A stretch of 64,000 bases of DNA from an uncultured Candidatus Saccharibacteria bacterium (GCA_964530725.1 CAZGYV010000001.1:15829-79828), one strand, 5' to 3'. Counted from the first letter of the stretch, positions 16,455 through 61,948 are shown. A program made the numbers and translations. The notes: a model not told the origin generated them from the letters alone.

Positions 16455-17866
16455 AGTATCAATTAGGTCGTCTAAAAAATAACCGCCGTGGCTTCTCGAT
16501 GGTGCAAGTCATTATCACATCGGTATTCTTGATGAGTATCGCGCTTATTATGGCAACTTCAGCGGTGGTGAATTTAAAATATACCAGCTACGTAGAAAAA
16601 TCTTATGATGCCAACTCGGTTGCTGAGGCCGGTATAAATTATTATCTATGGCATTTGGCACACAACATCAGCGATTACTGTGACGGTCAGGCTTGTGGCA
16701 CGCAAGGGCCTGACGGCTACGGGCCGTTCACACATCAATACAAAGACAGTAGCGGTAAAGTAGTTGGTACTTACGAGCTATATATCAAGCCGCCGCCGGC
16801 CTATTCGAGCATGACGACAGTCAAGTCAATCGGTCGGATCAATGGCTTAAACAAATCCCGCGTCTTGCAGGCGCAGCTGGCTGTCCCATCGTTCGCGCAG
16901 TATGCTTTGCTGACCGGTACGGAGATTTGGATTGGCCCAAGCGAGCGAGTTAATGGCCCGCTGCACTCCAATGTCGGCGTCCACTTTGACGGTATCGCCG
17001 ATGGTCCGGTAACGGCTGCTAACGCGACTTACCGGCCAACTGCTCAGTTTGGCGGTGACGGGCAGATGCATAATGGTGTTTGGGGTAATGGCGGACCTCA
17101 GTCATATTGGAGCTTTCCGGTGCCGCCAGTTGACTTTAACGCTGTCACGGCGGACTTGCAAAAAATCAAAACCGACGCCCAGAGCAATGGCGTCTACCTG
17201 CCACCGACCAATCCCGGCAATCCCAGCTCAAAGCTAGGCTATTACCTAGAATTAAAATCAAACAAGTCAATTGATGTTTATCGTGTCACCCAAGAACGTT
17301 GCACTAGCCTATCGAGAACCTTCGTTGCCAACTACGCCAAGCCGGCCAATGGCTTGCTCTACGTTGAGGATAATGTCTGGGTGCAGTCTAAGTCTGGTGA
17401 TAGGTACAACGACCGCCTGACGATTGCGGCTGCCTACCTGCCCAGTAGCGCCGCGCGTGATAAATCGATTACTATCACCGGCGATATTTTATACAGTGCT
17501 AAAGACGGCACGGCCGCAATTGGCTTAATTGCTCAGAAAGACGTCAAGGTGAATAATGTAGCGCCATATAATCTAGAAATCGACGCTGCCCTGCTCGCTC
17601 AAAAAGGCCATACATTTTTTGAAAGCAGCACCCTTTCGGCCAATTGTAGCAATCAAGTCAAGGGTACGATAACTGTGCACGGCGCGATCAGCAGCTATCT
17701 ATTTTGGACCTGGACTTATGTTACGGGTGGCAACAATGTGATCGATGGCTACGCCACGACTCTCTCGACCTATGATAGTTATTTGAAGTTTAACCCGCCG
17801 CCGAGCTTTCCGACCACCGGCACTTTTTCGGTATTAAACTTTAGAGAATTACTAGAAAATCCTTGA
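16451..17866 (+). CDS. PilX-like large minor pilin / pilus tip-associated protein
   Basis: ATGA-coupled to the previous gene. N-terminus MKYQLGRLKNNRRG|FSMVQVIITSVFLMSIALIMA (pseudopilin-like, Q at +5); 471 aa. Confidence 0.6.
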   Translation: MKYQLGRLKNNRRGFSMVQVIITSVFLMSIALIMATSAVVNLKYTSYVEKSYDANSVAEAGINYYLWHLAHNISDYCDGQACGTQGPDGYGPFTHQYKDSSGKVVGTYELYIKPPPAYSSMTTVKSIGRINGLNKSRVLQAQLAVPSFAQYALLTGTEIWIGPSERVNGPLHSNVGVHFDGIADGPVTAANATYRPTAQFGGDGQMHNGVWGNGGPQSYWSFPVPPVDFNAVTADLQKIKTDAQSNGVYLPPTNPGNPSSKLGYYLELKSNKSIDVYRVTQERCTSLSRTFVANYAKPANGLLYVEDNVWVQSKSGDRYNDRLTIAAAYLPSSAARDKSITITGDILYSAKDGTAAIGLIAQKDVKVNNVAPYNLEIDAALLAQKGHTFFESSTLSANCSNQVKGTITVHGAISSYLFWTWTYVTGGNNVIDGYATTLSTYDSYLKFNPPPSFPTTGTFSVLNFRELLENP

Positions 17867-24237: not shown

Positions 24238-25523
24238 GCCCGCCTGCCATGGTGAATGCCCAAGATCGCAAATAGCACGATCGCTAGCGTACTGTCGCTA
24301 AAACTATGCAAAAACATGTTGGTTGAAGCCAGGCCAACTATACTGGCGAATAAACTAATGCTAGCCAGATTTTGGCTGCTTAGGCCCTCGCGTAGCAACG
24401 AAATCGCATTAAATCCTAAAAAGGCCAGGAACAGTATTAAGCCAACCAGCCCAATCTCGATCGCGATCTGCAAGTACCAGTTCTCGGTAATGAGTGATTT
24501 AGCGGCGTAATAACTCGCCGGACCGGCGGCGCCCAGCCCCTTGCCTAAGGGGTTTTCGACTACTGTGGCGACTCCGCCCTCGAGTGACTTAAGCCTAATC
24601 TGGTCAGAACCTTTGAGCGTGTTATCGCTGCAGCTGCCGTGCAATAAGTAATATTGGACGATGTTATTGGGGTTGCAGAAATTGCGGCTTGTCACAAATA
24701 GCAAGCCTCCAGTCAGGGCTATCACGACAGCAATGATTATTTTTGGCCGCCAAGATTTCTTAACGCCTAAAAATACAGTTACAAGGATGGCCAAGGCCGC
24801 TCCCAGCCAAGCGCTACGTGAATAGGTCAAATACAAACCGGTAATTAAAGTAGCTAAAATCATGGCTTTTTTCGTATCAAATTTATCGACTAATCGCCCC
24901 GTCACCAAAGTTATTGGTAATATCAGATAGGCACCGAGCTGGTTTGGCCCTCCGAGGGAGGAAAAAGCCCGTCTTACCATGGTGGCGGAATCGACATATT
25001 GAGCCGGTATAATGGTGGTTTCGTTGTAGCCAAGTGTCCTTAACATTTCAGGCGTGATCGCGAAGCTTTGTAAAATAGCTAGTAGGGCCACGATTAAGGC
25101 CGGCCAGACCACCAAATTATATACTTTTTGATCATTGAATCTTGAAGCGACGACCTGTGCCACCACGAATATTACTAGTGGCATTAAGTCTGTTTTGATA
25201 CCAAAAATAAAGGCTGTCAGCGAGCCGAACCTTATCAGGCTGACAGCTAGTGCCAGGACAATGATAGCTGCCACTAGGTAATTGACGCGGTCGAGCTTTG
25301 GCCTATTGCCTGGGTGTTTAAAGATGTAGAAGGCGCCCACCGCGGCTATTACTAGAGCCACTATCTCCTTCCAGGCCTGCCAGACAGGACCCATGCGCGA
25401 AAGACTGCCCAGGTAAGTCGTAAAGAAAGCATGAAAAGGCATCAGAGCTATCAAAACGACTAAGCCGCCGTAGATGATTTGTTCGGCGGATATTTTTTTT
25501 GTCATGATTGATCTAATTTTCAT
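24234..25523 (-). CDS. O-antigen ligase/polymerase-like (Wzy_C) polytopic membrane protein
   Basis: About 10 or more TM segments. YLTYSRSAWLGAALAILV matches the Wzy_C/O-antigen-ligase loop signature. Confidence 0.7.
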   Translation of the reverse strand: MKIRSIMTKKISAEQIIYGGLVVLIALMPFHAFFTTYLGSLSRMGPVWQAWKEIVALVIAAVGAFYIFKHPGNRPKLDRVNYLVAAIIVLALAVSLIRFGSLTAFIFGIKTDLMPLVIFVVAQVVASRFNDQKVYNLVVWPALIVALLAILQSFAITPEMLRTLGYNETTIIPAQYVDSATMVRRAFSSLGGPNQLGAYLILPITLVTGRLVDKFDTKKAMILATLITGLYLTYSRSAWLGAALAILVTVFLGVKKSWRPKIIIAVVIALTGGLLFVTSRNFCNPNNIVQYYLLHGSCSDNTLKGSDQIRLKSLEGGVATVVENPLGKGLGAAGPASYYAAKSLITENWYLQIAIEIGLVGLILFLAFLGFNAISLLREGLSSQNLASISLFASIVGLASTNMFLHSFSDSTLAIVLFAILGIHHGRRA

Positions 25524-26533
25524 CGGTTTGAGATAACGCTGCGCATGTATTCGTCTAGGTTTTCCAGGGCGATGCCGGTACCCTTGGCCACGCAGAGCAG
25601 CGGCTCCTCGGCCACATAAGCCGGTACACCAGTCACCTTGGTCATCAGTTTGTCGATGTTGCGCAGCAAGCTACCGCCACCTGTCATCACCATGCCGCGG
25701 TCAATAATGTCGCTTGAGAGCTCAGGCGGAGTCTGCTCTAAGACCACCTTGACGGCCATGATGATCTCATCTAGCCGATCGTTGATCGCCTCGGTCACCT
25801 CGGATGAATCAAGGCTGACTGTCTTGGGAAGACCGGCAATCATATCGCGGCCGCGAATTTGCATTTGCATCGGCTTATCAAGCGGCATGGCCGAGCCAAT
25901 TTTAATTTTAATCTCCTCGGCTGTCTGATCGCCGATTACGAGGCCGTACTTGCGGCGAATATAGTCGCTAATGGCCTGATCTATCTTGTTGCCACCCACC
26001 CGCACGCTATTTTGAGCCACAATCCCGCCCAGCGAGATAATTGCTACTTCGGTCGTGCCGCCACCGATATCAACGATTAAGTTGCCTGCTGGAGCGGCGA
26101 TTGGCACGTTGGCGCCGATCGCGGCGGCCAGTGGCTCGCGAATAATGTGAGCCTTTTTAGCACCAGCGGCCATAGCCGCATCGATGACAGCCCTTCTCTC
26201 GGTGGAGGTGACACCGGCCGGTATGCTGATCATTAACTCCGGCCTACTTAAGCGAAAGCTGCCCGACACTTTGTTAATAAAATGCTTCAACATGGCTTGG
26301 GTGATACGGTAATCAGCAATCACGCCGTCGCGCAGCGGCCGGTTGGCAGTAATAATATCAGGTGTGCGACCGAGCATTTCTTTAGCTTCATTGCCAATCG
26401 CTACAATCCGATTATCATCGACACTAATAGCCACCACGCTCGGCTCATTAGCTACAATCCCTTTTTTCGGCAAGTAAACCAAAATATGAGCGGTTCCTAG
26501 GTCAATTGCGATTTGTTTTTTGAACATCGACAT
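25520..26533 (-). CDS. mreB: MreB/Mbl-family actin-like protein (paralog 1)
   Basis: IAIDLGTAHILVY, NEPSVVA, DIGGGTTEVA and MTGGGSLLRNIDK; 337 aa. ATGA-type overlap with the downstream Wzy-like gene. Confidence 0.9.
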   Translation of the reverse strand: MSMFKKQIAIDLGTAHILVYLPKKGIVANEPSVVAISVDDNRIVAIGNEAKEMLGRTPDIITANRPLRDGVIADYRITQAMLKHFINKVSGSFRLSRPELMISIPAGVTSTERRAVIDAAMAAGAKKAHIIREPLAAAIGANVPIAAPAGNLIVDIGGGTTEVAIISLGGIVAQNSVRVGGNKIDQAISDYIRRKYGLVIGDQTAEEIKIKIGSAMPLDKPMQMQIRGRDMIAGLPKTVSLDSSEVTEAINDRLDEIIMAVKVVLEQTPPELSSDIIDRGMVMTGGGSLLRNIDKLMTKVTGVPAYVAEEPLLCVAKGTGIALENLDEYMRSVISNR

Positions 26534-40393: not shown

Positions 40394-41305
40394 CTAAAGC
40401 TTCAGATAGCGCGAGATCGCCAGCCAACTCGATATCACGCCTATCAATATACCGAGGCCAAATTCCGCCCCGACGACCAGCAGTAAACGTTGTGAAAAAA
40501 AGTTGATTACTTCGGGCGCGTTAAAGTAACTGACAAAGAATGGCCCCATCCAGCGAATAATCGGCAGTGATATCAAGACCGAAATGGTGGCTCCCAGTAC
40601 GCCATAGAGCGATCCCTCGACGATAAATGGCCCGCGGATAAACCAGTTGGTCGCGCCGACTAGCTTCATAATTTCAATCTCTTCGCGGCGGGTAAAAATC
40701 GCCATACGGATAGTATTGAAGATTATCAACAGCGAAATTACCAGGAAGGCTGTCGAGATAATAGTGCCGGCCTTGGCCACGCCATTGCTGATTTTGATGA
40801 TTTTCTCGTAGATTTTCTTGCGCGTGTCACTATCATCGTAGCTGGTAGACTTAATTATCTTCGAGTAGTCAGGTGCTTTGATAATATTGTTTATCTGATC
40901 GAGCTGACCGGCGTCCTTGGTCTTGACCTCGAGTGAGGCGGGTAGCGGATTGCCGATATCGGGCACTTTCTCGGTCAAGCTTTTACTGTCTTTGCTGATC
41001 GACTCGAAGCGCTTGAGAGCATCGGCCTTTGACACGTAGGTGACCGACTTAACATTATCAAGCGCGACTAGCTTAGCTTGCAGCTCCTTAATCTGATCGG
41101 TCGTGGCCTCGTCTTGTAAGAAAATGGCCAAATCGATTTTTTCCTTCACGGCTGTTAGCTGGGTGTGCAAAAACATGGCCGAAAAAGCGAAAAATGTCAC
41201 GATGACGAGCGTCACTACCATGATGGCGGTAGCGGCCGTCGATAACCAGGCATTGCGGAAGAGATTGCGAAAACCAGTCTTGAAAATTCGCCACAACGTT
41301 GTCAT
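40394..41305 (-). CDS. ftsX: cell division permease-like protein FtsX
   Basis: N-terminus RNLFRNAWLSTAATAIMVV, an extracellular domain, then three C-terminal TM helices with EIEIMKLVGATNWFIRGPF. Confidence 0.9.
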   Translation of the reverse strand: MTTLWRIFKTGFRNLFRNAWLSTAATAIMVVTLVIVTFFAFSAMFLHTQLTAVKEKIDLAIFLQDEATTDQIKELQAKLVALDNVKSVTYVSKADALKRFESISKDSKSLTEKVPDIGNPLPASLEVKTKDAGQLDQINNIIKAPDYSKIIKSTSYDDSDTRKKIYEKIIKISNGVAKAGTIISTAFLVISLLIIFNTIRMAIFTRREEIEIMKLVGATNWFIRGPFIVEGSLYGVLGATISVLISLPIIRWMGPFFVSYFNAPEVINFFSQRLLLVVGAEFGLGILIGVISSWLAISRYLKL

Positions 41306-41457
41306 AAAAACACCCCTCTAGAAATAGTCGACCCAAACTGCATCATTTGCGGCAAGTTCAAGGAAAGAACGAGCAGCACAATGAGGCGTACGCAACGGTA
41401 CGATGAACGAGCAGCGCAGTTCTTGACACAGAAATTGCCCAAAGAATTAAGCCCCAT
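41302..41457 (-). CDS. candidate 51-aa Cys-containing small membrane protein between ftsE and ftsX
   Basis: MGLNSLGNFCVKNCAARSSYRCVRLIVLLVLSLNLPQMMQFGSTISRGVFL. Its ATG shares its A with the ftsE TGA (TGATG) and its TGA overlaps the ftsX ATG (ATGA). It is below the ORF-track size cut-off. The paralogous DNA copy at 60793-60890 is not intact in this frame. Confidence 0.35.
   Translation of the reverse strand: MGLNSLGNFCVKNCAARSSYRCVRLIVLLVLSLNLPQMMQFGSTISRGVFL
41355..41450 (-). repeat. copy A of a ~95-nt intergenic element (post-ftsE)
   Basis: About 70% identical, with the same block spacing, to 60793-60890. Shared blocks are GTTCAAGGAA, GAGGCGTA and TTCT(T)GAC(A/G)CAGAA. The internal hairpin is CGTAC-n6-GTACG. 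Confidence 0.6.
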
Positions 41458-42155
41458 CACAGCACGAACCTCCCGACCTTCTCGTCTTTAATAATCCGCC
41501 CACGGTTAATTGTCACGACTCGTTTTTTGAGGGCGTTGACGATTTCTTTGTTGTGCGTCGTCAGCAGGACGGTGGTGCCGAATTTGTTGATCTTAAGCAA
41601 TAACTCAATAATATCCCAAGCGTTTTTGGGATCAAGGTTACCGGTCGGCTCATCAGCGATTAGAATCTTGGGATTGCGCACCAAAGCTCGAGCGATGGCA
41701 GTACGCTGTTTCTCGCCGCCCGATATTTCACCCGGGTAATTGTTGGCTTTTTCTGATAAACCGACCAATTGCAGTATTTTCGGCACTGCTCGCTTAATCT
41801 CAGACGTTTTGACCCCCGATACTTCGAGCGCGAAAGCCACATTTTCATAAACCGTTAGATTGGGCAGCAGCTTAAAATCCTGAAAAACCACCCCAATACG
41901 CCGCCGCAGATGCGGAATATTTGCCTTATCGATAGTGTCATAATCAACGCTGCCGACAATAATTTTACCCGAAGTCGGCACTTCTTCCTTAATAAGTAAA
42001 CGAATCAGCGTCGATTTACCGGCCCCAGAGGCGCCAACAATCGTCACAAACTCTTTTGGGCTGATATGTAAAGATATCCCAGAAAGCGCCACTGTCTTAT
42101 TGGGATACATAACTGTAACACGATCTAATAAAATCACTCTACTATTGTAACGCAA
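41457..42155 (-). CDS. ftsE: cell division ATP-binding protein FtsE
   Basis: GASGAGKSTLIRLL (Walker A), ISGGEKQRTAIARAL (signature), ILIADEPTGNLD (Walker B). Confidence 0.9.
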   Translation of the reverse strand: MRYNSRVILLDRVTVMYPNKTVALSGISLHISPKEFVTIVGASGAGKSTLIRLLIKEEVPTSGKIIVGSVDYDTIDKANIPHLRRRIGVVFQDFKLLPNLTVYENVAFALEVSGVKTSEIKRAVPKILQLVGLSEKANNYPGEISGGEKQRTAIARALVRNPKILIADEPTGNLDPKNAWDIIELLLKINKFGTTVLLTTHNKEIVNALKKRVVTINRGRIIKDEKVGRFVL

Positions 42156-43399: not shown

Positions 43400-44620
43400 T
43401 TATTTTTTCCAGCTGCGCAGGGCGTCTTTGAGGGCTTTTTTACCTTTCAGGTAAGTGTAGCCAACGTAGCTTAGACCGCTCATGCCCAGTACTCCGGCAC
43501 CGGCACTCTCAATACCAGTTTGTGGTATTTCGCCGCCGCCAGCAATCACTGGTGCGCTTGGCGTTGGGGTGATTACTTCACCAGGTGTTACAGGTGTTGG
43601 GGTTGGTGTAGGTGTAATCGATGGCGTGACTGTTGGAGTTGGAGTCGGGGTAATAGTTGGGGTTGGCGTAGGAGTCACGCTTGGAGTGGTGGTAGGAGTT
43701 GGTGTAGGCGTAACTTTCGGCTTTTTAACCTTGACGATCGCCTTGTCACAACCCTTTTGGTTGTCATTGGCAGTGAAGCAAGCTTCGTTGTCAATGTAGG
43801 TGCCACCTGGTGTGTTACCATCAACGTTGACAGTAATAGTAACGTCTTTGATTTGATTTGGAGCCACATCAGGGTAGTTGAAGTTAATTACCCGAGTGGG
43901 GTCGCCATTGGCGAGCTTCACTTCGGCTGGCAGCGGGTCGGTCATCTTAATACCGGTTAGCGCGCCAGTACCAACGTTGGTCATATAGACAACGTACTTC
44001 AGCTTGTCGCCAGCTTCGACTTCCAAGGCAGTTTCCTTGGTGTCGGCAGCGTAAGCGGTGTTGGCATCTTTACTGAGGTTGATAACACGCTTATAAATCT
44101 GGCCAAAAGGCTTGTTCATCGGCTTGATGGGGTTACCGCAAGACTTGATGATCGCCCAGTGGAAAGTACCACCTTCCATGCTAACAAAAGCTGGCAAGGA
44201 ATTGGAGTTAAACGATACGGCTGGCGGACGCATCCACAGCGAACCGTCTTTGGTCGAGTTCTGCAAGAACTCACGGCCGGAGCTAAAAACTCCAGTACCT
44301 ACTTGAGCACCGTTCACCCAGACAGAGCCGTCTTTGCGAACTTCGCCCTCGACGGTGTTCGGACTCATAATGCCGGCTTCGGTGATACCGCGGCCTTCAT
44401 TGTAATAAATCTGCTTGAGGTTGGCCGATGAATTCGCACCATCGCCACCATTAATTTTACTGATTAATTCTTGCTTATCAGCCGCGCCACATTTCATCAC
44501 AGCATTGCTGTCACAGTCGCGGGCAGCGTCAACTTTAACTAGTGGCAAGACTATCGAAGCCACCAGTAGCAAAGCGCTAACAATACCAATCAATTTGGTA
44601 CTAATTTTGCCTTTCTTCAT
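43400..44620 (-). CDS. sortase-anchored surface protein (PQTG sorting signal) with Thr/Pro linker
   Basis: Signal peptide (LIGIVSALLLVASIVLPLVKVDA), a DUF11-like beta domain, a (TP)n linker, and C-terminal IPQTG plus a hydrophobic stretch plus KGKKALKDALRSWKK. Confidence 0.8.
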   Translation of the reverse strand: MKKGKISTKLIGIVSALLLVASIVLPLVKVDAARDCDSNAVMKCGAADKQELISKINGGDGANSSANLKQIYYNEGRGITEAGIMSPNTVEGEVRKDGSVWVNGAQVGTGVFSSGREFLQNSTKDGSLWMRPPAVSFNSNSLPAFVSMEGGTFHWAIIKSCGNPIKPMNKPFGQIYKRVINLSKDANTAYAADTKETALEVEAGDKLKYVVYMTNVGTGALTGIKMTDPLPAEVKLANGDPTRVINFNYPDVAPNQIKDVTITVNVDGNTPGGTYIDNEACFTANDNQKGCDKAIVKVKKPKVTPTPTPTTTPSVTPTPTPTITPTPTPTVTPSITPTPTPTPVTPGEVITPTPSAPVIAGGGEIPQTGIESAGAGVLGMSGLSYVGYTYLKGKKALKDALRSWKK

Positions 44621-59387: not shown

Positions 59388-59899
59388 TTTAACTTACCCA
59401 GTTTATAGGTGTGGCTAGTCTTATTGCGGCCGGTGATAGTATAGATCACCCCAAAAGCCACAAAGGCCAGTACTACATTATATAACACTTCAATACCCAA
59501 AAACTTAAGCGAGTACAAGTCAAGAGACTGATTAGGAGTCCCAATCAAGCCCAGCGACATCACAATCGAATAAAAAACCGTGCCGAAGCCGATTACAATT
59601 AGCGCATAAGTATTGCGCGCCGGTGATTCGCCGAGGGAAAGAATAATTTTGATAATGATCACCAATAAAACATAAAAAGCCATATTGATACCAAAATCAT
59701 TACCACTGTATAGATCGAGAATGAAGCCGCCGCCAAGAGCTAGCCATACAAGGCTCGAATAATCCCAAAATAAACTGGCTACGACCAAATAAACCAATAA
59801 AAAGTTAGGCGTTACCCTGTTTTGACCGACCAAGCTAAGCGCTGACGCTTGAGCGAACACGGCCGCGAGCATTAAGCCGATTTGCCAGACGCGGCGCAT
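59384..59899 (-). CDS. mreD: rod shape-determining protein MreD
   Basis: 171-aa polytopic membrane protein between mreC and PBP2, with overlapping start and stop codons. Confidence 0.7.
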   Translation of the reverse strand: MRRVWQIGLMLAAVFAQASALSLVGQNRVTPNFLLVYLVVASLFWDYSSLVWLALGGGFILDLYSGNDFGINMAFYVLLVIIIKIILSLGESPARNTYALIVIGFGTVFYSIVMSLGLIGTPNQSLDLYSLKFLGIEVLYNVVLAFVAFGVIYTITGRNKTSHTYKLGKLK

Positions 59900-60693
59900 T
59901 ACTTCTGCCCCAACACCACAAAAACAATCTCAAGCTTGGATGTATTCACGAGCGGGCGTAAATGGGCCGTTTGGAACAAGGCATTGTCACTGCGATCGAC
60001 AGCCTCGACTTGACCGATCAAGATACCGCGCGGAATGATATCCGAGCCGGCCGTAATCACAGTCTCGCCAGGCCTGATCGATTCGCTTTGGGCGATTTTT
60101 TCCATCTCATAACCTTCACCAAGCTGTCCCTTGACAACACCGCTGGCTCTGCCCTCCTGACCAAGCCCTAAAATTCTAAACTCAGGGTCATCAATTAAAA
60201 ATATTTTGGCGCTGTAATCATTCACCTCCTCAACCTCACCGACAAGAACGCCACCAGAGACGGCCGCCATGCCCTTTTTGATATTACTCGAGGCACCCCG
60301 ATCGATCGTTAGATACTTGCGCACATTGTCAGGATTGTAGCCAACCACCCTGGTTGGCACTAGGTCGAGCGACAAGCGAGCGTTGAAGCCGACTTGCTTG
60401 CGCAAAATATCGTTTTCTTTCGATATTTCCTGCATATCTGACAACTGTTTTTTGAGCTCCAGCACCTCAGCTTCGAGCTGCTTATTTTTATTACCAAGAC
60501 TTGTCAGCGAGCCAAACAATCCAACCGTGTCGCTAATATTACGAGCCGAGGCCGTGAAAAACCGACCAACCGGGCTAAAAGCCTGGTCGAATACTATGCG
60601 CAACGGCCACAAAAGCCCAGTGAGTTGCAACACGACGATAATAATACCGACGGACAACACCGTAATAGTAGTAAAGCGAATTTTCCTCTTCAT
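59899..60693 (-). CDS. mreC: rod shape-determining protein MreC
   Basis: N-terminal TM helix, a coiled coil (LEAEVLELKKQLSDMQE) and beta-barrel repeats (GMAAVSGGVLVGEV..., ITAGSDIIPRGILIGQV). Confidence 0.9.
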   Translation of the reverse strand: MKRKIRFTTITVLSVGIIIVVLQLTGLLWPLRIVFDQAFSPVGRFFTASARNISDTVGLFGSLTSLGNKNKQLEAEVLELKKQLSDMQEISKENDILRKQVGFNARLSLDLVPTRVVGYNPDNVRKYLTIDRGASSNIKKGMAAVSGGVLVGEVEEVNDYSAKIFLIDDPEFRILGLGQEGRASGVVKGQLGEGYEMEKIAQSESIRPGETVITAGSDIIPRGILIGQVEAVDRSDNALFQTAHLRPLVNTSKLEIVFVVLGQK

Positions 60694-60792
60694 GCAACCT
60701 TATTTTACCATTTATTGAGATGGGTTTGTGATAGAATTCTGATCTTAGATTCTTTATAAGAAAAATAATACCGAGACGCATTTATAAGAATG

Positions 60793-60890
60793 GAGTTCAA
60801 GGAAGAAATGAGAATCGTAGAGAGGCGTAGTTTGCACTACGTCGAGCGAGACTCGCAATTTCTGACGCAGAAGTACGTCTTAAAAATGTG
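60793..60890 (-). repeat. copy B of the ~95-nt intergenic element (post-mreB)
   Basis: See copy A (41355-41450). The hairpin here is CGTAG-n6-CTACG, a compensatory change relative to copy A. Confidence 0.6.
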
Positions 60891-60895
60891 TCGAT

Positions 60896-61948
60896 CTACC
60901 GCGGTGTTTTTTCATATTGGGTGGAGACCAGCACATCCTTCAAACTATCAATATCCTCCAAGACCAGCCCCGTACCCCGTACCACCGCAGTCAATGGATC
61001 CTCGGCAATATGAATGGGCATCTTGGTTTGTTGATTTAGTAGTTTGTCTAGTCCGCGCAGCAAAGCCCCACCGCCAGCCAAATAAATGCCCTTGTCCATG
61101 ATGTCAGCGATCAGCTCAGGCGGCGTTTCCTCGAGAGTATTTTTAACCGCGTCGACGATCGAGCGCACGCTTTTGGCTAACGCCTGACGTACCTGATCGG
61201 ACGTAATAATGATTTCCTTTGGCAGGCCGGTTACGATGTCACGACCGCGGATCGGTGCCTCGATTTCCTCATCGATCTTACAGGCTGAGCCGACATTGAT
61301 TTTAATAGCTTCTGCCGTACGCTCACCTACCTGAAGATTGAATTTCTCCTTAGCATAGTTGATGATATCCTCGGTCAGTTCATCACCAGCAATGCGAATC
61401 GAGCGACTGGCCACGATCCCGCCCAAGCTAATCACCGCCACTTCACTGGTGCCGCCACCAATATCAACTATCATCGAGCCGGCGGCCTCATGCACCGGCA
61501 GGCGACTGCCGACTGCTGCTGCCATCGGCTCCTCGATCAGGAAAGCTTGGCGCGCGCCGGCGTTAGTAGTAGCGTCTTCGACCGCTCTTTTTTCGACTTC
61601 GGTCACTCCCGAAGGAATACCAATCACGACCCGCGGGCGGGGAAAAAAGGCGAAGCTCTCTTTGTGAACCTTCTCAATAAAATACTTAAGCATTTGCTCG
61701 GTGATTTCAAAATCACTAACAACGCCGTCGACCAAAGGCCTCGAAGCGACAATGTAAGCCGGCGTCTTACCGACCATCGTCTTGGCCTCCTCGCCGATCG
61801 CTAAAATCTGCTTCGTCTTAGTATTGATCGCGACCACACTGGGCTCGTTGATAATTATCCCCTTACCACGAACATAGACCAAGGTGTTTGCCGTACCCAG
61901 GTCTATGCCAATGTCGTGCGAAAATCTTCCTAGAATTTTTTTTAACAT
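60896..61948 (-). CDS. mreB: rod shape-determining protein MreB (paralog 2, canonical mreBCD context)
   Basis: IGIDLGTANTLVYVRGKGIIINEPSVVAI, DIGGGTSEVAVISLGG and LAGGGALLRGLDK. Confidence 0.95.
   Translation of the reverse strand: MLKKILGRFSHDIGIDLGTANTLVYVRGKGIIINEPSVVAINTKTKQILAIGEEAKTMVGKTPAYIVASRPLVDGVVSDFEITEQMLKYFIEKVHKESFAFFPRPRVVIGIPSGVTEVEKRAVEDATTNAGARQAFLIEEPMAAAVGSRLPVHEAAGSMIVDIGGGTSEVAVISLGGIVASRSIRIAGDELTEDIINYAKEKFNLQVGERTAEAIKINVGSACKIDEEIEAPIRGRDIVTGLPKEIIITSDQVRQALAKSVRSIVDAVKNTLEETPPELIADIMDKGIYLAGGGALLRGLDKLLNQQTKMPIHIAEDPLTAVVRGTGLVLEDIDSLKDVLVSTQYEKTPR

Follow-up and report, generated by a model that had tools for sequence, protein, structure and literature searches.

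Among the small palindromic repeats described in bacteria, the Correia (NEMIS/CREE) elements of Neisseria form RNA hairpins that can be processed by RNase III and that alter mRNA stability, and repetitive extragenic palindromic (REP) sequences can stabilize upstream mRNA and cause differential expression (e.g., at malE-malF). The genomes of Patescibacteria (candidate phyla radiation [CPR]), which are about 1 Mb in size and tightly packed, are generally held to contain few repeats and little mobile DNA. Here we analyze a 64,000-nt stretch of DNA (GCA_964530725.1, CAZGYV010000001.1:15829-79828; the window) from a Saccharimonadia (TM7) bacterium, whose best MreB match among the species genomes of the Genome Taxonomy Database (GTDB) is 88% identical. 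The window holds two copies of a palindromic element, one (copy A) between ftsE and ftsX and the other (copy B) between mreB and mreC. [quoted passage not shown] It is a covarying hairpin with terminal repeats, is polymorphic for presence at its sites, lies at gene junctions and stop codons, has come under selection after insertion, and has no coding capacity. We found no published account of such an element in Patescibacteria in the literature on repeats, MITEs, and RNA motifs, and it is apparently undescribed. An initial annotation, made from the sequence of the window alone, had drawn attention to the two copies and had suggested that they might be a cis-regulatory or processing element coordinating ftsEX and mreBCD, a small-protein gene family, or a miniature repeat element.

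Filled and empty sites at the ftsE-ftsX and mreB-mreC junctions

Closer relatives of the host were gathered through homologs of MreC and FtsX. At the mreB site, the element is present in four lineages (the window/L081, L085, L092, and L094) and absent from one (L088), where the mreB-mreC spacer is 37 nt long; the corresponding spacer of the window, which holds copy B, measures 202 nt. The element occupies the ftsE site in four lineages (the window, L097, L107, and L109). L103 and L105 have an empty site, and their ftsE and ftsX genes overlap with stop and start codons fused as GTGA or ATGA, the usual arrangement, in which the two genes are translationally coupled. In the filled ftsE sites, the insert is flanked by ...CTGTGA and ATGACAAC..., with TGA on either side, and in the window it makes up the entire ftsE-ftsX spacer and includes copy A. 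Comparison of the filled and empty sequences shows that copies A and B are insertions, and the order of events fits sequential gains, B and then A, with no losses. The initial annotation had correctly placed both copies beside stop codons (ftsE, 41457 to 41459; mreB, 60896 to 60898). Farther afield, neither an nhmmer profile nor a covariance model detected the element after mreB at any of 80 mreB loci from GTDB genomes, and in the 21 closest GTDB loci inspected mreC begins 3 to 70 nt past mreB.

The insertion at ftsE has consequences for the organization of the operon. A G-rich Shine-Dalgarno (SD) sequence is found upstream of ftsX, at the same position, in every filled ftsE site and in none of the empty ones, and ftsX here is predicted to be translated from this ribosome-binding site of its own and not through a stop/start overlap. 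A translationally coupled gene pair has thus been split in some lineages and not in others, which amounts to operon remodeling, and the presence or absence of a copy provides a marker that separates close lineages. The occupied junctions also indicate where insertions are tolerated in Saccharibacteria, a group with few genetic tools. On the mreC side, the minus strand carries an extended -10-like box (TGGTAAAAT, 60702 to 60710) 8 nt upstream of the mreC ATG. This box is kept in all close relatives, including the element-free lineage, and mreC may have its own promoter with a very short leader or none.

The spacer on the mreC side of the mreB copy is unalignable between lineages and contains different cargo in each: a 145-aa open reading frame (ORF) with no Pfam match in L085 (9531 to 9968, minus strand), a split low-molecular-weight phosphatase gene in L092 (9561 to 9973, plus strand), and ~200 nt of noncoding DNA in L094 (9810 to 10000). 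The spot adjoining the element at this site is an insertion hot spot. In L085/L086, a gene of 413 aa (16558 to 17799, minus strand) that weakly matches Transposase_20 (IS110 family) lies ~6 kb from mreC; it is absent at that place from L088 and L092, and no copy of the element adjoins it.

Conserved fold, covariation, and selection

Copies A and B are, as first noticed, related stretches, and their ungapped register has an offset of 19439. In each, GAGGCGTA begins 27 nt further on from the 5' core block (41383 in A and 60822 in B); the initial annotation had this spacing right, but the starts that it assigned to the copies (41355 and 60793) are off by 1 to 2 nt and mutually inconsistent. Identity amounts to 52/79 (66%) over the core, 54/83 (65%) over the best window, and 58/95 (61%) over the span originally delimited, so that the similarity is real but lies at 61 to 66% and not at the proposed value of about 70%. 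When the window was scanned against itself along all diagonals, only four of these reached 52/83. The A/B pair is the second-best self-match, the remaining three diagonals being accounted for by an mreB paralog pair (two) and a tandem repeat (one). The binomial expectation for a match of at least 54/83 across all window comparisons is ~1e-4, and chance is excluded as the explanation of the similarity. Neither tblastn with both peptides nor the covariance model run without filters found a third copy in the window. The window's strongest self-match pairs mreB with a second MreB/Mbl paralog (25520 to 26533, minus strand; 337 aa; Pfam MreB_Mbl, E = 4e-137), which has no element after it. The tandem repeat (43596 to 43713; period, 12 nt; GTTGGGGTTGGTGTAGG-like units) lies within an ORF (43400 to 44620, minus strand) and probably encodes a proline/threonine-rich low-complexity stretch on the minus strand.

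RNAfold predicts one long imperfect hairpin architecture on the plus strand that is shared by copies A and B, and all of the relatives are alike in this respect. The covariance model matches copy A at 41344 to 41447 (105 bits) and copy B at 60783 to 60886 (106 bits), both on the plus strand. The element consists of an outer stem that varies from copy to copy and constitutes the terminal inverted repeats, a conserved core of ~100 nt, and a variable apical hairpin; with the outer stem, it extends up to ~125 nt, and the hairpins span 98 to 125 nt. The outer stems of A and B are unrelated in sequence, yet each of them pairs. Copy A additionally retains one arm of an outer terminal inverted repeat, AATTAAGCCCC, whose partner, GGGGCTTAATT, has decayed in the window; the pair is intact in L109 (GGCTTAATT...AATTAAGCC), and in the alignment of the copy A orthologs L107 has the arm on the other side.

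The core reads, on the plus strand, roughly as AGUUCAAGGAA-GAAAY-GA-GNANC-GNA-RY-GA-G[apical hairpin]C-GA-RY-GA-GNANC-GSA-GUUUCU-GAC-GCA-GAAAU. It contains four internal loops, in which GA is opposed by GA or G(N)A, and a pseudo-two-fold helix (GNANC/GNANC) with a conserved A.A mismatch. The 5' core block includes TCAAGGAA, which is invariant across the 20 sequences of alignment A2, and carries the first tandem G.A (G20 A21 of the alignment). Its partner is the 3' core block, TGAC(A/G)CAGAA in A and B, with GA opposite GA, C with G, and GAA with UUC.

The covariation supporting this fold was evaluated over the 23 distinct copies of the wider family described below. Standard pairs make up 95.2% of the pair cells, both sides have changed in 25 of the 30 pairs, and RNAalifold agrees. 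None of 500 column shuffles matched the observed value on any measure, and in a control in which the partners were slid by 1 to 3 columns, pairing fell to 29 to 45%. The suggestion that the conserved feature is a nucleic acid structure is therefore upheld by strong covariation of the kind generally expected of structured RNAs; its extent is comparable to that of accepted RNA families and makes the element a candidate structured RNA. Four compensatory pairs are visible between A and B themselves. One is the C/G swap in the apical stem (CGTAC/GTACG in A and CGTAG/CTACG in B), which is as originally reported. The other three lie in the stem arm AAGAAC/GTTCTT of A, which corresponds to GAAAT/ATTTC of B, and give rise to a pattern of differences at every third base; the pattern had been offered as a possible sign of selection on a peptide, on an RNA structure, or on both and is real, but it is not driven by codons.

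Sequence divergence between orthologous copies points to selection that differs between the two sites. The orthologs of copy B in L085, L092, and L094 are 87 to 92% identical (8 to 13% different over 119 nt), whereas the 4-fold degenerate sites of the adjacent mreB differ by 49 to 63% in the same comparison; copy B is therefore under purifying selection. Over the same lineages, the last 120 nt of mreB are 78 to 83% identical and the first 120 nt of mreC are 61 to 72% identical. The copy at the mreB site is thus held under stronger constraint than the neighboring coding sequence, and the operon architecture of a minimal genome has been changed. The orthologs of copy A are less constrained (23 to 38% different versus 55 to 67% at the 4-fold sites of ftsX), and the fold is kept in three of the four. 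In the fourth, L107 (9835 to 9976), the outer stem has been lost. This ortholog is chimeric, with a 5' arm of the window/L109 type and a 3' arm of the L097 type, and its outer stem is unpaired because the arms derive from two allele types, which suggests recombination between alleles.

The two strands of the element are not equivalent. In nearly all copies, the purine-rich plus strand folds better than its complement by ~9 kcal/mol because the internal loops are purine rich on one strand. Both window copies lie on the plus strand, in a region where the genes are on the minus strand and the GC skew of the plus strand is negative; from the skew and gene direction, the better-folding strand is the lagging-strand sequence and not the lagging-strand template, so that a model of the IS608/attC kind is unfitting. 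Over the window as a whole, large ORFs are mostly on the plus strand up to ~17.8 kb and nearly all on the minus strand beyond, the plus-strand GC skew flips from positive to negative near 24 to 28 kb, and the interval of ~17.8 to 28 kb looks like the replication terminus region. An intrinsic terminator was considered and rejected, as no terminator was detected by a consensus scan of both strands at either copy; a U-rich stretch is present in copy B alone, 4 nt past the hairpin on the operon strand.

Table 1. Features of the two junctions in the window, with the sequence or evidence given for each
Feature	Coordinates	Strand	Remarks
ftsX	40394-41305	-	Start codon 41303-41305
Whole insert between ftsE stop and ftsX start	41306-41456	.	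151 nt; filled/empty comparison
SD sequence for ftsX, GAGGGG	41313-41318	-	Inside insert, 7 nt upstream of ATG; read directly
Copy A hairpin	41346-41443	+	Outer stem TTTG.GGCAA / TTGCC.CAAA; RNAfold
Copy A 5' core block, GTTCAAGGAA	41356-41365	+	Alignments A2, A3
Copy A apical hairpin, CGTAC-gcaacg-GTACG	41387-41402	+	
Copy A 3' core block, TGACACAGAA	41424-41433	+	Alignments A2, A3, consensus structure
Copy A surviving arm of outer terminal inverted repeat, AATTAAGCCCC	41445-41455	+	Four-ortholog alignment
ftsE	41457-42155	-	
mreC	59899-60693	-	ATG 60691-60693
Copy B hairpin	60775-60892	+	Outer stem GACGCATTT.TAAGA / TCTTA.AAATGTGTC; RNAfold
Copy B 5' core block, GTTCAAGGAA	60795-60804	+	Sequence comparison, alignment
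Copy B apical hairpin, GGCGTAGT-ttgc-ACTACGTC		+	
Copy B 3' core block, TGACGCAGAA	60863-60872	+	Sequence comparison, alignment
mreB	60896-61948	-	

Relatives at other gene junctions of Patescibacteria

A degenerate pattern built from eight Saccharimonadia copies was run over a metagenome collection and recovered 14 contigs, 13 of which share the fold but not the sequences of the outer stems and apical hairpins, which are entirely different. The remaining match (L122) falls inside a DNA ligase ORF and was rejected as a chance match. The covariance model added three divergent members (L073, L074, and a second copy in L113, here termed L113b), bringing the total from pattern scan and model to 23 distinct copies. 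Further copies, for which the initial annotation had proposed a search, thus occur at unrelated loci in other Patescibacteria, and their dispersal, together with the presence/absence polymorphism at orthologous sites, lends support to its third option, a miniature repeat element. The G+C content of the hosts ranges from 34% to 56% across the 13 genuine contigs from the pattern scan. The family is patchy in Patescibacteria, with members in Saccharimonadia and Parcubacteria.

The element is not specific to cell division genes. Copies lie at the rpsG-fusA junction (L119, L121, and L123), between an S1 domain gene and infB (L117), between infB and rbfA (L112), between rny and hup (L116), after rplU (L120), between proS and mreB (L073), and upstream of rseP (L074). 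In L113, two plus-strand copies, one typical and one divergent (2011 to 2114 and 2367 to 2469), flank the minus-strand L28 gene rpmB, and both are antisense to it. In L111 (563 to 726), L114, and L115 (2128 to 2290), a sense copy follows a 161-aa Peptidase_M78/IrrE-like gene and precedes a canonical intrinsic terminator, and the element of these loci is predicted to belong to the 3' untranslated region.

An independent case of a filled site is offered by L124, in which a copy directly follows mreB; judging from the names of its closest MreB homologs, this contig comes from Parcubacteria/Paceibacteria. The site is empty in two relatives with 92% and 80% identical MreB (L125 and L126). The L124 copy has perfect terminal inverted repeats (16/16 bp, GAACCTCAATTTTGAG) flanked by TA...TA, and the left TA together with the first G of the element constitutes the TAG stop codon of mreB. 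TA flanks are also present in L112, L116, L118, and L113b; the copies of L112, L116, and L118 are near identical and lie at three different loci of one metagenome, which are not assignable to one genome. In L116, L118, L119, and L124, the last bases of the element contain the stop codon of the neighboring gene (TAG; TAA in L119). As the stop is made up of the flanking TA and the first base of the element in L116, L118, and L124, a stop can be restored when the element inserts into a stop codon's TA. Insertion takes place precisely at the junctions between genes, in many cases on such a TA.

Measured against MITEs, the element has the expected size (hairpins of 98 to 125 nt) and no conserved reading frame, its outer stems pair in every copy despite their unrelated sequences, except in L107, where the arms no longer pair, and filled and empty sites are available at the mreB, ftsE, and L124 sites. 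No transposase gene adjoins any copy among the called neighbors. The pattern scan found no copies in viral contigs, and blastn found no match in plasmid and phage collections; a phage or plasmid origin was rejected on these grounds. Searches of the window and 13 family loci against Rfam 15 gave no family match at the gathering score, and the weak matches obtained with permissive E values do not fall on the element. Resemblances to signal recognition particle RNA and the hammerhead were considered and dropped as having no Rfam support, and those to the kink-turn and the bulge-helix-bulge motif were dropped both for that reason and because the loop geometry is outside their definitions. A template/variable repeat pair of a diversity-generating retroelement was rejected by eye, as A and B also differ at bases other than adenine.

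Candidate roles and comparison with known palindromic repeats

The explanation that we prefer, and consider probable, is that these sequences are a MITE- or ERIC-like family of palindromic insertions that act as intercistronic RNA hairpins punctuating the transcript. As the filled and empty sites show, copy B was inserted between mreC and the stop codon of mreB and copy A into the overlapping stop-start of ftsE/ftsX; the mreB-site element has since been kept by purifying selection. According to our proposal, on transcription of the operon, a long hairpin (with an outer stem of at least 20 bp) would form between the cistrons, whereby the ftsE or mreB mRNA might gain a protected or processed 3' end (e.g., as an RNase III-type substrate or through an exonuclease barrier). 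The downstream gene would be uncoupled, ftsX through the SD sequence inside the insert and mreC through the promoter-like box TGGTAAAAT.

Several points weigh against this proposal. The role at the RNA level is argued by analogy with Correia, ERIC, and REP elements, and a plain hairpin role leaves the four conserved G.A loops and the A.A mismatch unexplained. At 10 of 14 sites, the better-folding strand has an antisense orientation relative to the flanking genes, so that the operon mRNA usually carries the weaker, pyrimidine-rich version. A DNA palindrome would show the same covariation on either strand, which by itself is therefore no proof of an active RNA, and templated (quasi-palindrome) correction can yield compensatory changes in a palindrome without selection. 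As regards mobility, 1.1 Mb of collected loci yielded neither an autonomous transposase with matching ends nor a split or long autonomous version (half-sites separated by up to 3 kb). Target site duplications are uneven, being TA in some copies (the five named above), possibly TGA at ftsE, and not visible at the window mreB copy, nor clear in several others. The number of copies looks low, with only two, mutually ~65% identical, in the 64 kb of the window, two in L113, and only two matches in ~560 kb of other Patescibacteria mreB neighborhoods, where the distribution is patchy.

Because the better-folding strand is so often antisense, the ladder of G.A loops is unexplained, and the function is argued by analogy, we kept two rivals that place the active molecule elsewhere. 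An independent small RNA gene or structured RNA module could be expressed from the purine-rich plus strand, the copies being those of a mobile noncoding RNA gene whose transcripts would be antisense to or convergent with the neighbors and whose G.A loops would bind a protein or support a tertiary fold. The plus strand folds better nearly everywhere (-40.6 versus -27.6 kcal/mol in copy B, and elsewhere -46.3 versus -28.5 and -51.0 versus -35.3), the four conserved loops are of the G.A type there and of the U.C type on the other strand, and the prevalence of antisense sites, the conservation of copy B beyond that of the adjoining mreB coding sequence, and the same-strand intrinsic terminator after the element in L111, L114, and L115 are all consistent with it. 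We nevertheless find this rather doubtful. In consensus scans, copy B has no promoter or terminator, including a sigma-70-like promoter on the plus strand, and copy A has one weak plus-strand promoter-like site (41299 to 41328); orientation is mixed, with four sense sites; the terminator in L111 and L115 can be that of the upstream gene; and the element is dispensable in sister lineages. The excess of G.U over A.C cells (41 versus 21) also leans to the plus strand, but weakly given shared ancestry (18 columns versus 11). The other rival, a purely selfish folded single-stranded DNA (ssDNA) that serves as the substrate of a transposase or recombinase (compare the IS200/IS605 ends and attC) and whose conservation reflects the requirements of mobility, appears unlikely. 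It would account for the terminal inverted repeats and TA flanks, the presence/absence polymorphism, the strand-asymmetric fold with its extrahelical and mismatched bases, and the common orientation of both window copies on one replichore. However, the identity of the mreB-site orthologs (87 to 92%) across lineages with saturated synonymous sites is hard to obtain without selection at the locus, the termini, which are usually the part bound by a transposase, are the least conserved, and no copy has a transposase or integrase gene next to it; attC core sites (GTTRRRY / RYYYAAC) are absent, and the better-folding strand in the window is not the lagging-strand template. A further reading, in which the family is more than a relic of MITEs and forms a new class of mobile structured single-stranded RNA or ssDNA whose G.A-ladder core would serve some, probably dimeric, Patescibacteria protein as binding site or active fold and whose mreB-type copies would be domesticated RNAs, is possible, and we hold it tentatively.

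The remaining two readings were among those of the initial annotation, and neither was sustained. A shared cis-regulatory element coupling ftsEX and mreBCD was suggested by the position of both window copies after cell division or cell shape genes, and the independent insertion right after mreB in L124 and the copy just upstream of mreB in L073 could be added in its favor, although the latter location is biased because the sample was anchored on mreB. One copy or both are missing from close relatives, the element does not follow mreB at any of the 80 other mreB loci, and most members lie at unrelated junctions (rpsG-fusA, infB-rbfA, rpmB, rny-hup, rplU, and the M78-like gene), which makes such coordination very improbable. 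Almost no credence can be given to a small-protein gene family, whether in the plus-strand frame FKE..RR...Y.ER..QFLTQK or as a short minus-strand ORF, even though A and B share 14 of 26 residues in one plus-strand frame, a six-codon block differs solely at synonymous positions, and a gene caller's predictions for L086 include a 38-aa ORF in that frame. The frame is interrupted by stops in 12 of 21 copies, including an ortholog of copy B (L094) and two of copy A (L097 and L109), and starts and stops do not correspond between A and B. The two conserved blocks stand 65, 66, or 67 nt apart, and as this spacing varies by 1 to 2 nt, the frame is not kept; the indels are not multiples of 3. The mismatches between A and B are distributed over codon positions 1, 2, and 3 as 6, 10, and 11, and in the family alignment no open frame on either strand is common to all copies.

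Returning to the punctuating insertion that we favor, the element is of more interest than a chance repeat, with its proposed function drawn from analogous systems, and it can be set beside these as follows. Correia elements are likewise palindromes of ~100 to 155 bp with terminal inverted repeats and TA flanks that lie near genes, are polymorphic for presence, and are cotranscribed with genes. No sequence relationship is seen, however, and Correia elements have conserved termini and occur in hundreds of copies per genome, whereas here the internal core is conserved, the termini vary, the copy number looks low, and the hosts are ultrasmall Patescibacteria. The ERIC/IRU (intergenic repeat unit) sequences of Enterobacteria and Vibrio are similar as imperfect palindromes (~127 bp) found in transcribed intergenic regions in either orientation; their unusual conservation between genera has been interpreted as a sign of RNA-level selection, and their mobility was deduced from filled and empty sites. 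They differ in sequence and host phylum, and no tandem G.A ladder has been reported for them. The RUP of Streptococcus pneumoniae and other MITEs mobilized by IS630/Tc1-mariner transposases are hairpins of ~100 nt that duplicate a TA target, and RUP-like TA flanks are found here in the youngest-looking copies (L124, L112, L116, L118, and L113b); unlike RUP, the element has no IS630-like partner with matching ends among the loci searched, its TA flanks are not universal, and the ftsE site has TGA.

Two further comparisons are more distant. REP sequences and the mosaic elements (BIME) built from them, with their associated RAYT transposases, are also intergenic palindromes inside operons, but REPs are 20 to 40 nt long, G+C rich, marked by GTAG or CGTC tags, and simpler than an element of at least 100 nt. 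Integron attC sites, at 55 to 140 nt, are imperfect palindromes that act as a folded single strand, with an asymmetry arising from unpaired bases and a variable sequence on a conserved architecture. An attC identity was rejected, since the conserved GTTCAAG is unlike GTTRRRY, its partner is GAAAU and not AAC, and there is no integrase among the called neighbors; moreover, the element lacks the R''/R' core sites (RYYYAAC...GTTRRRY), neither intI nor a cassette array lies close by, and its copies are scattered among housekeeping operons. With respect to textbook MITEs, finally, the element presents the reverse distribution of constraint, with an internal core that is conserved across Patescibacteria classes and termini that are free to vary.

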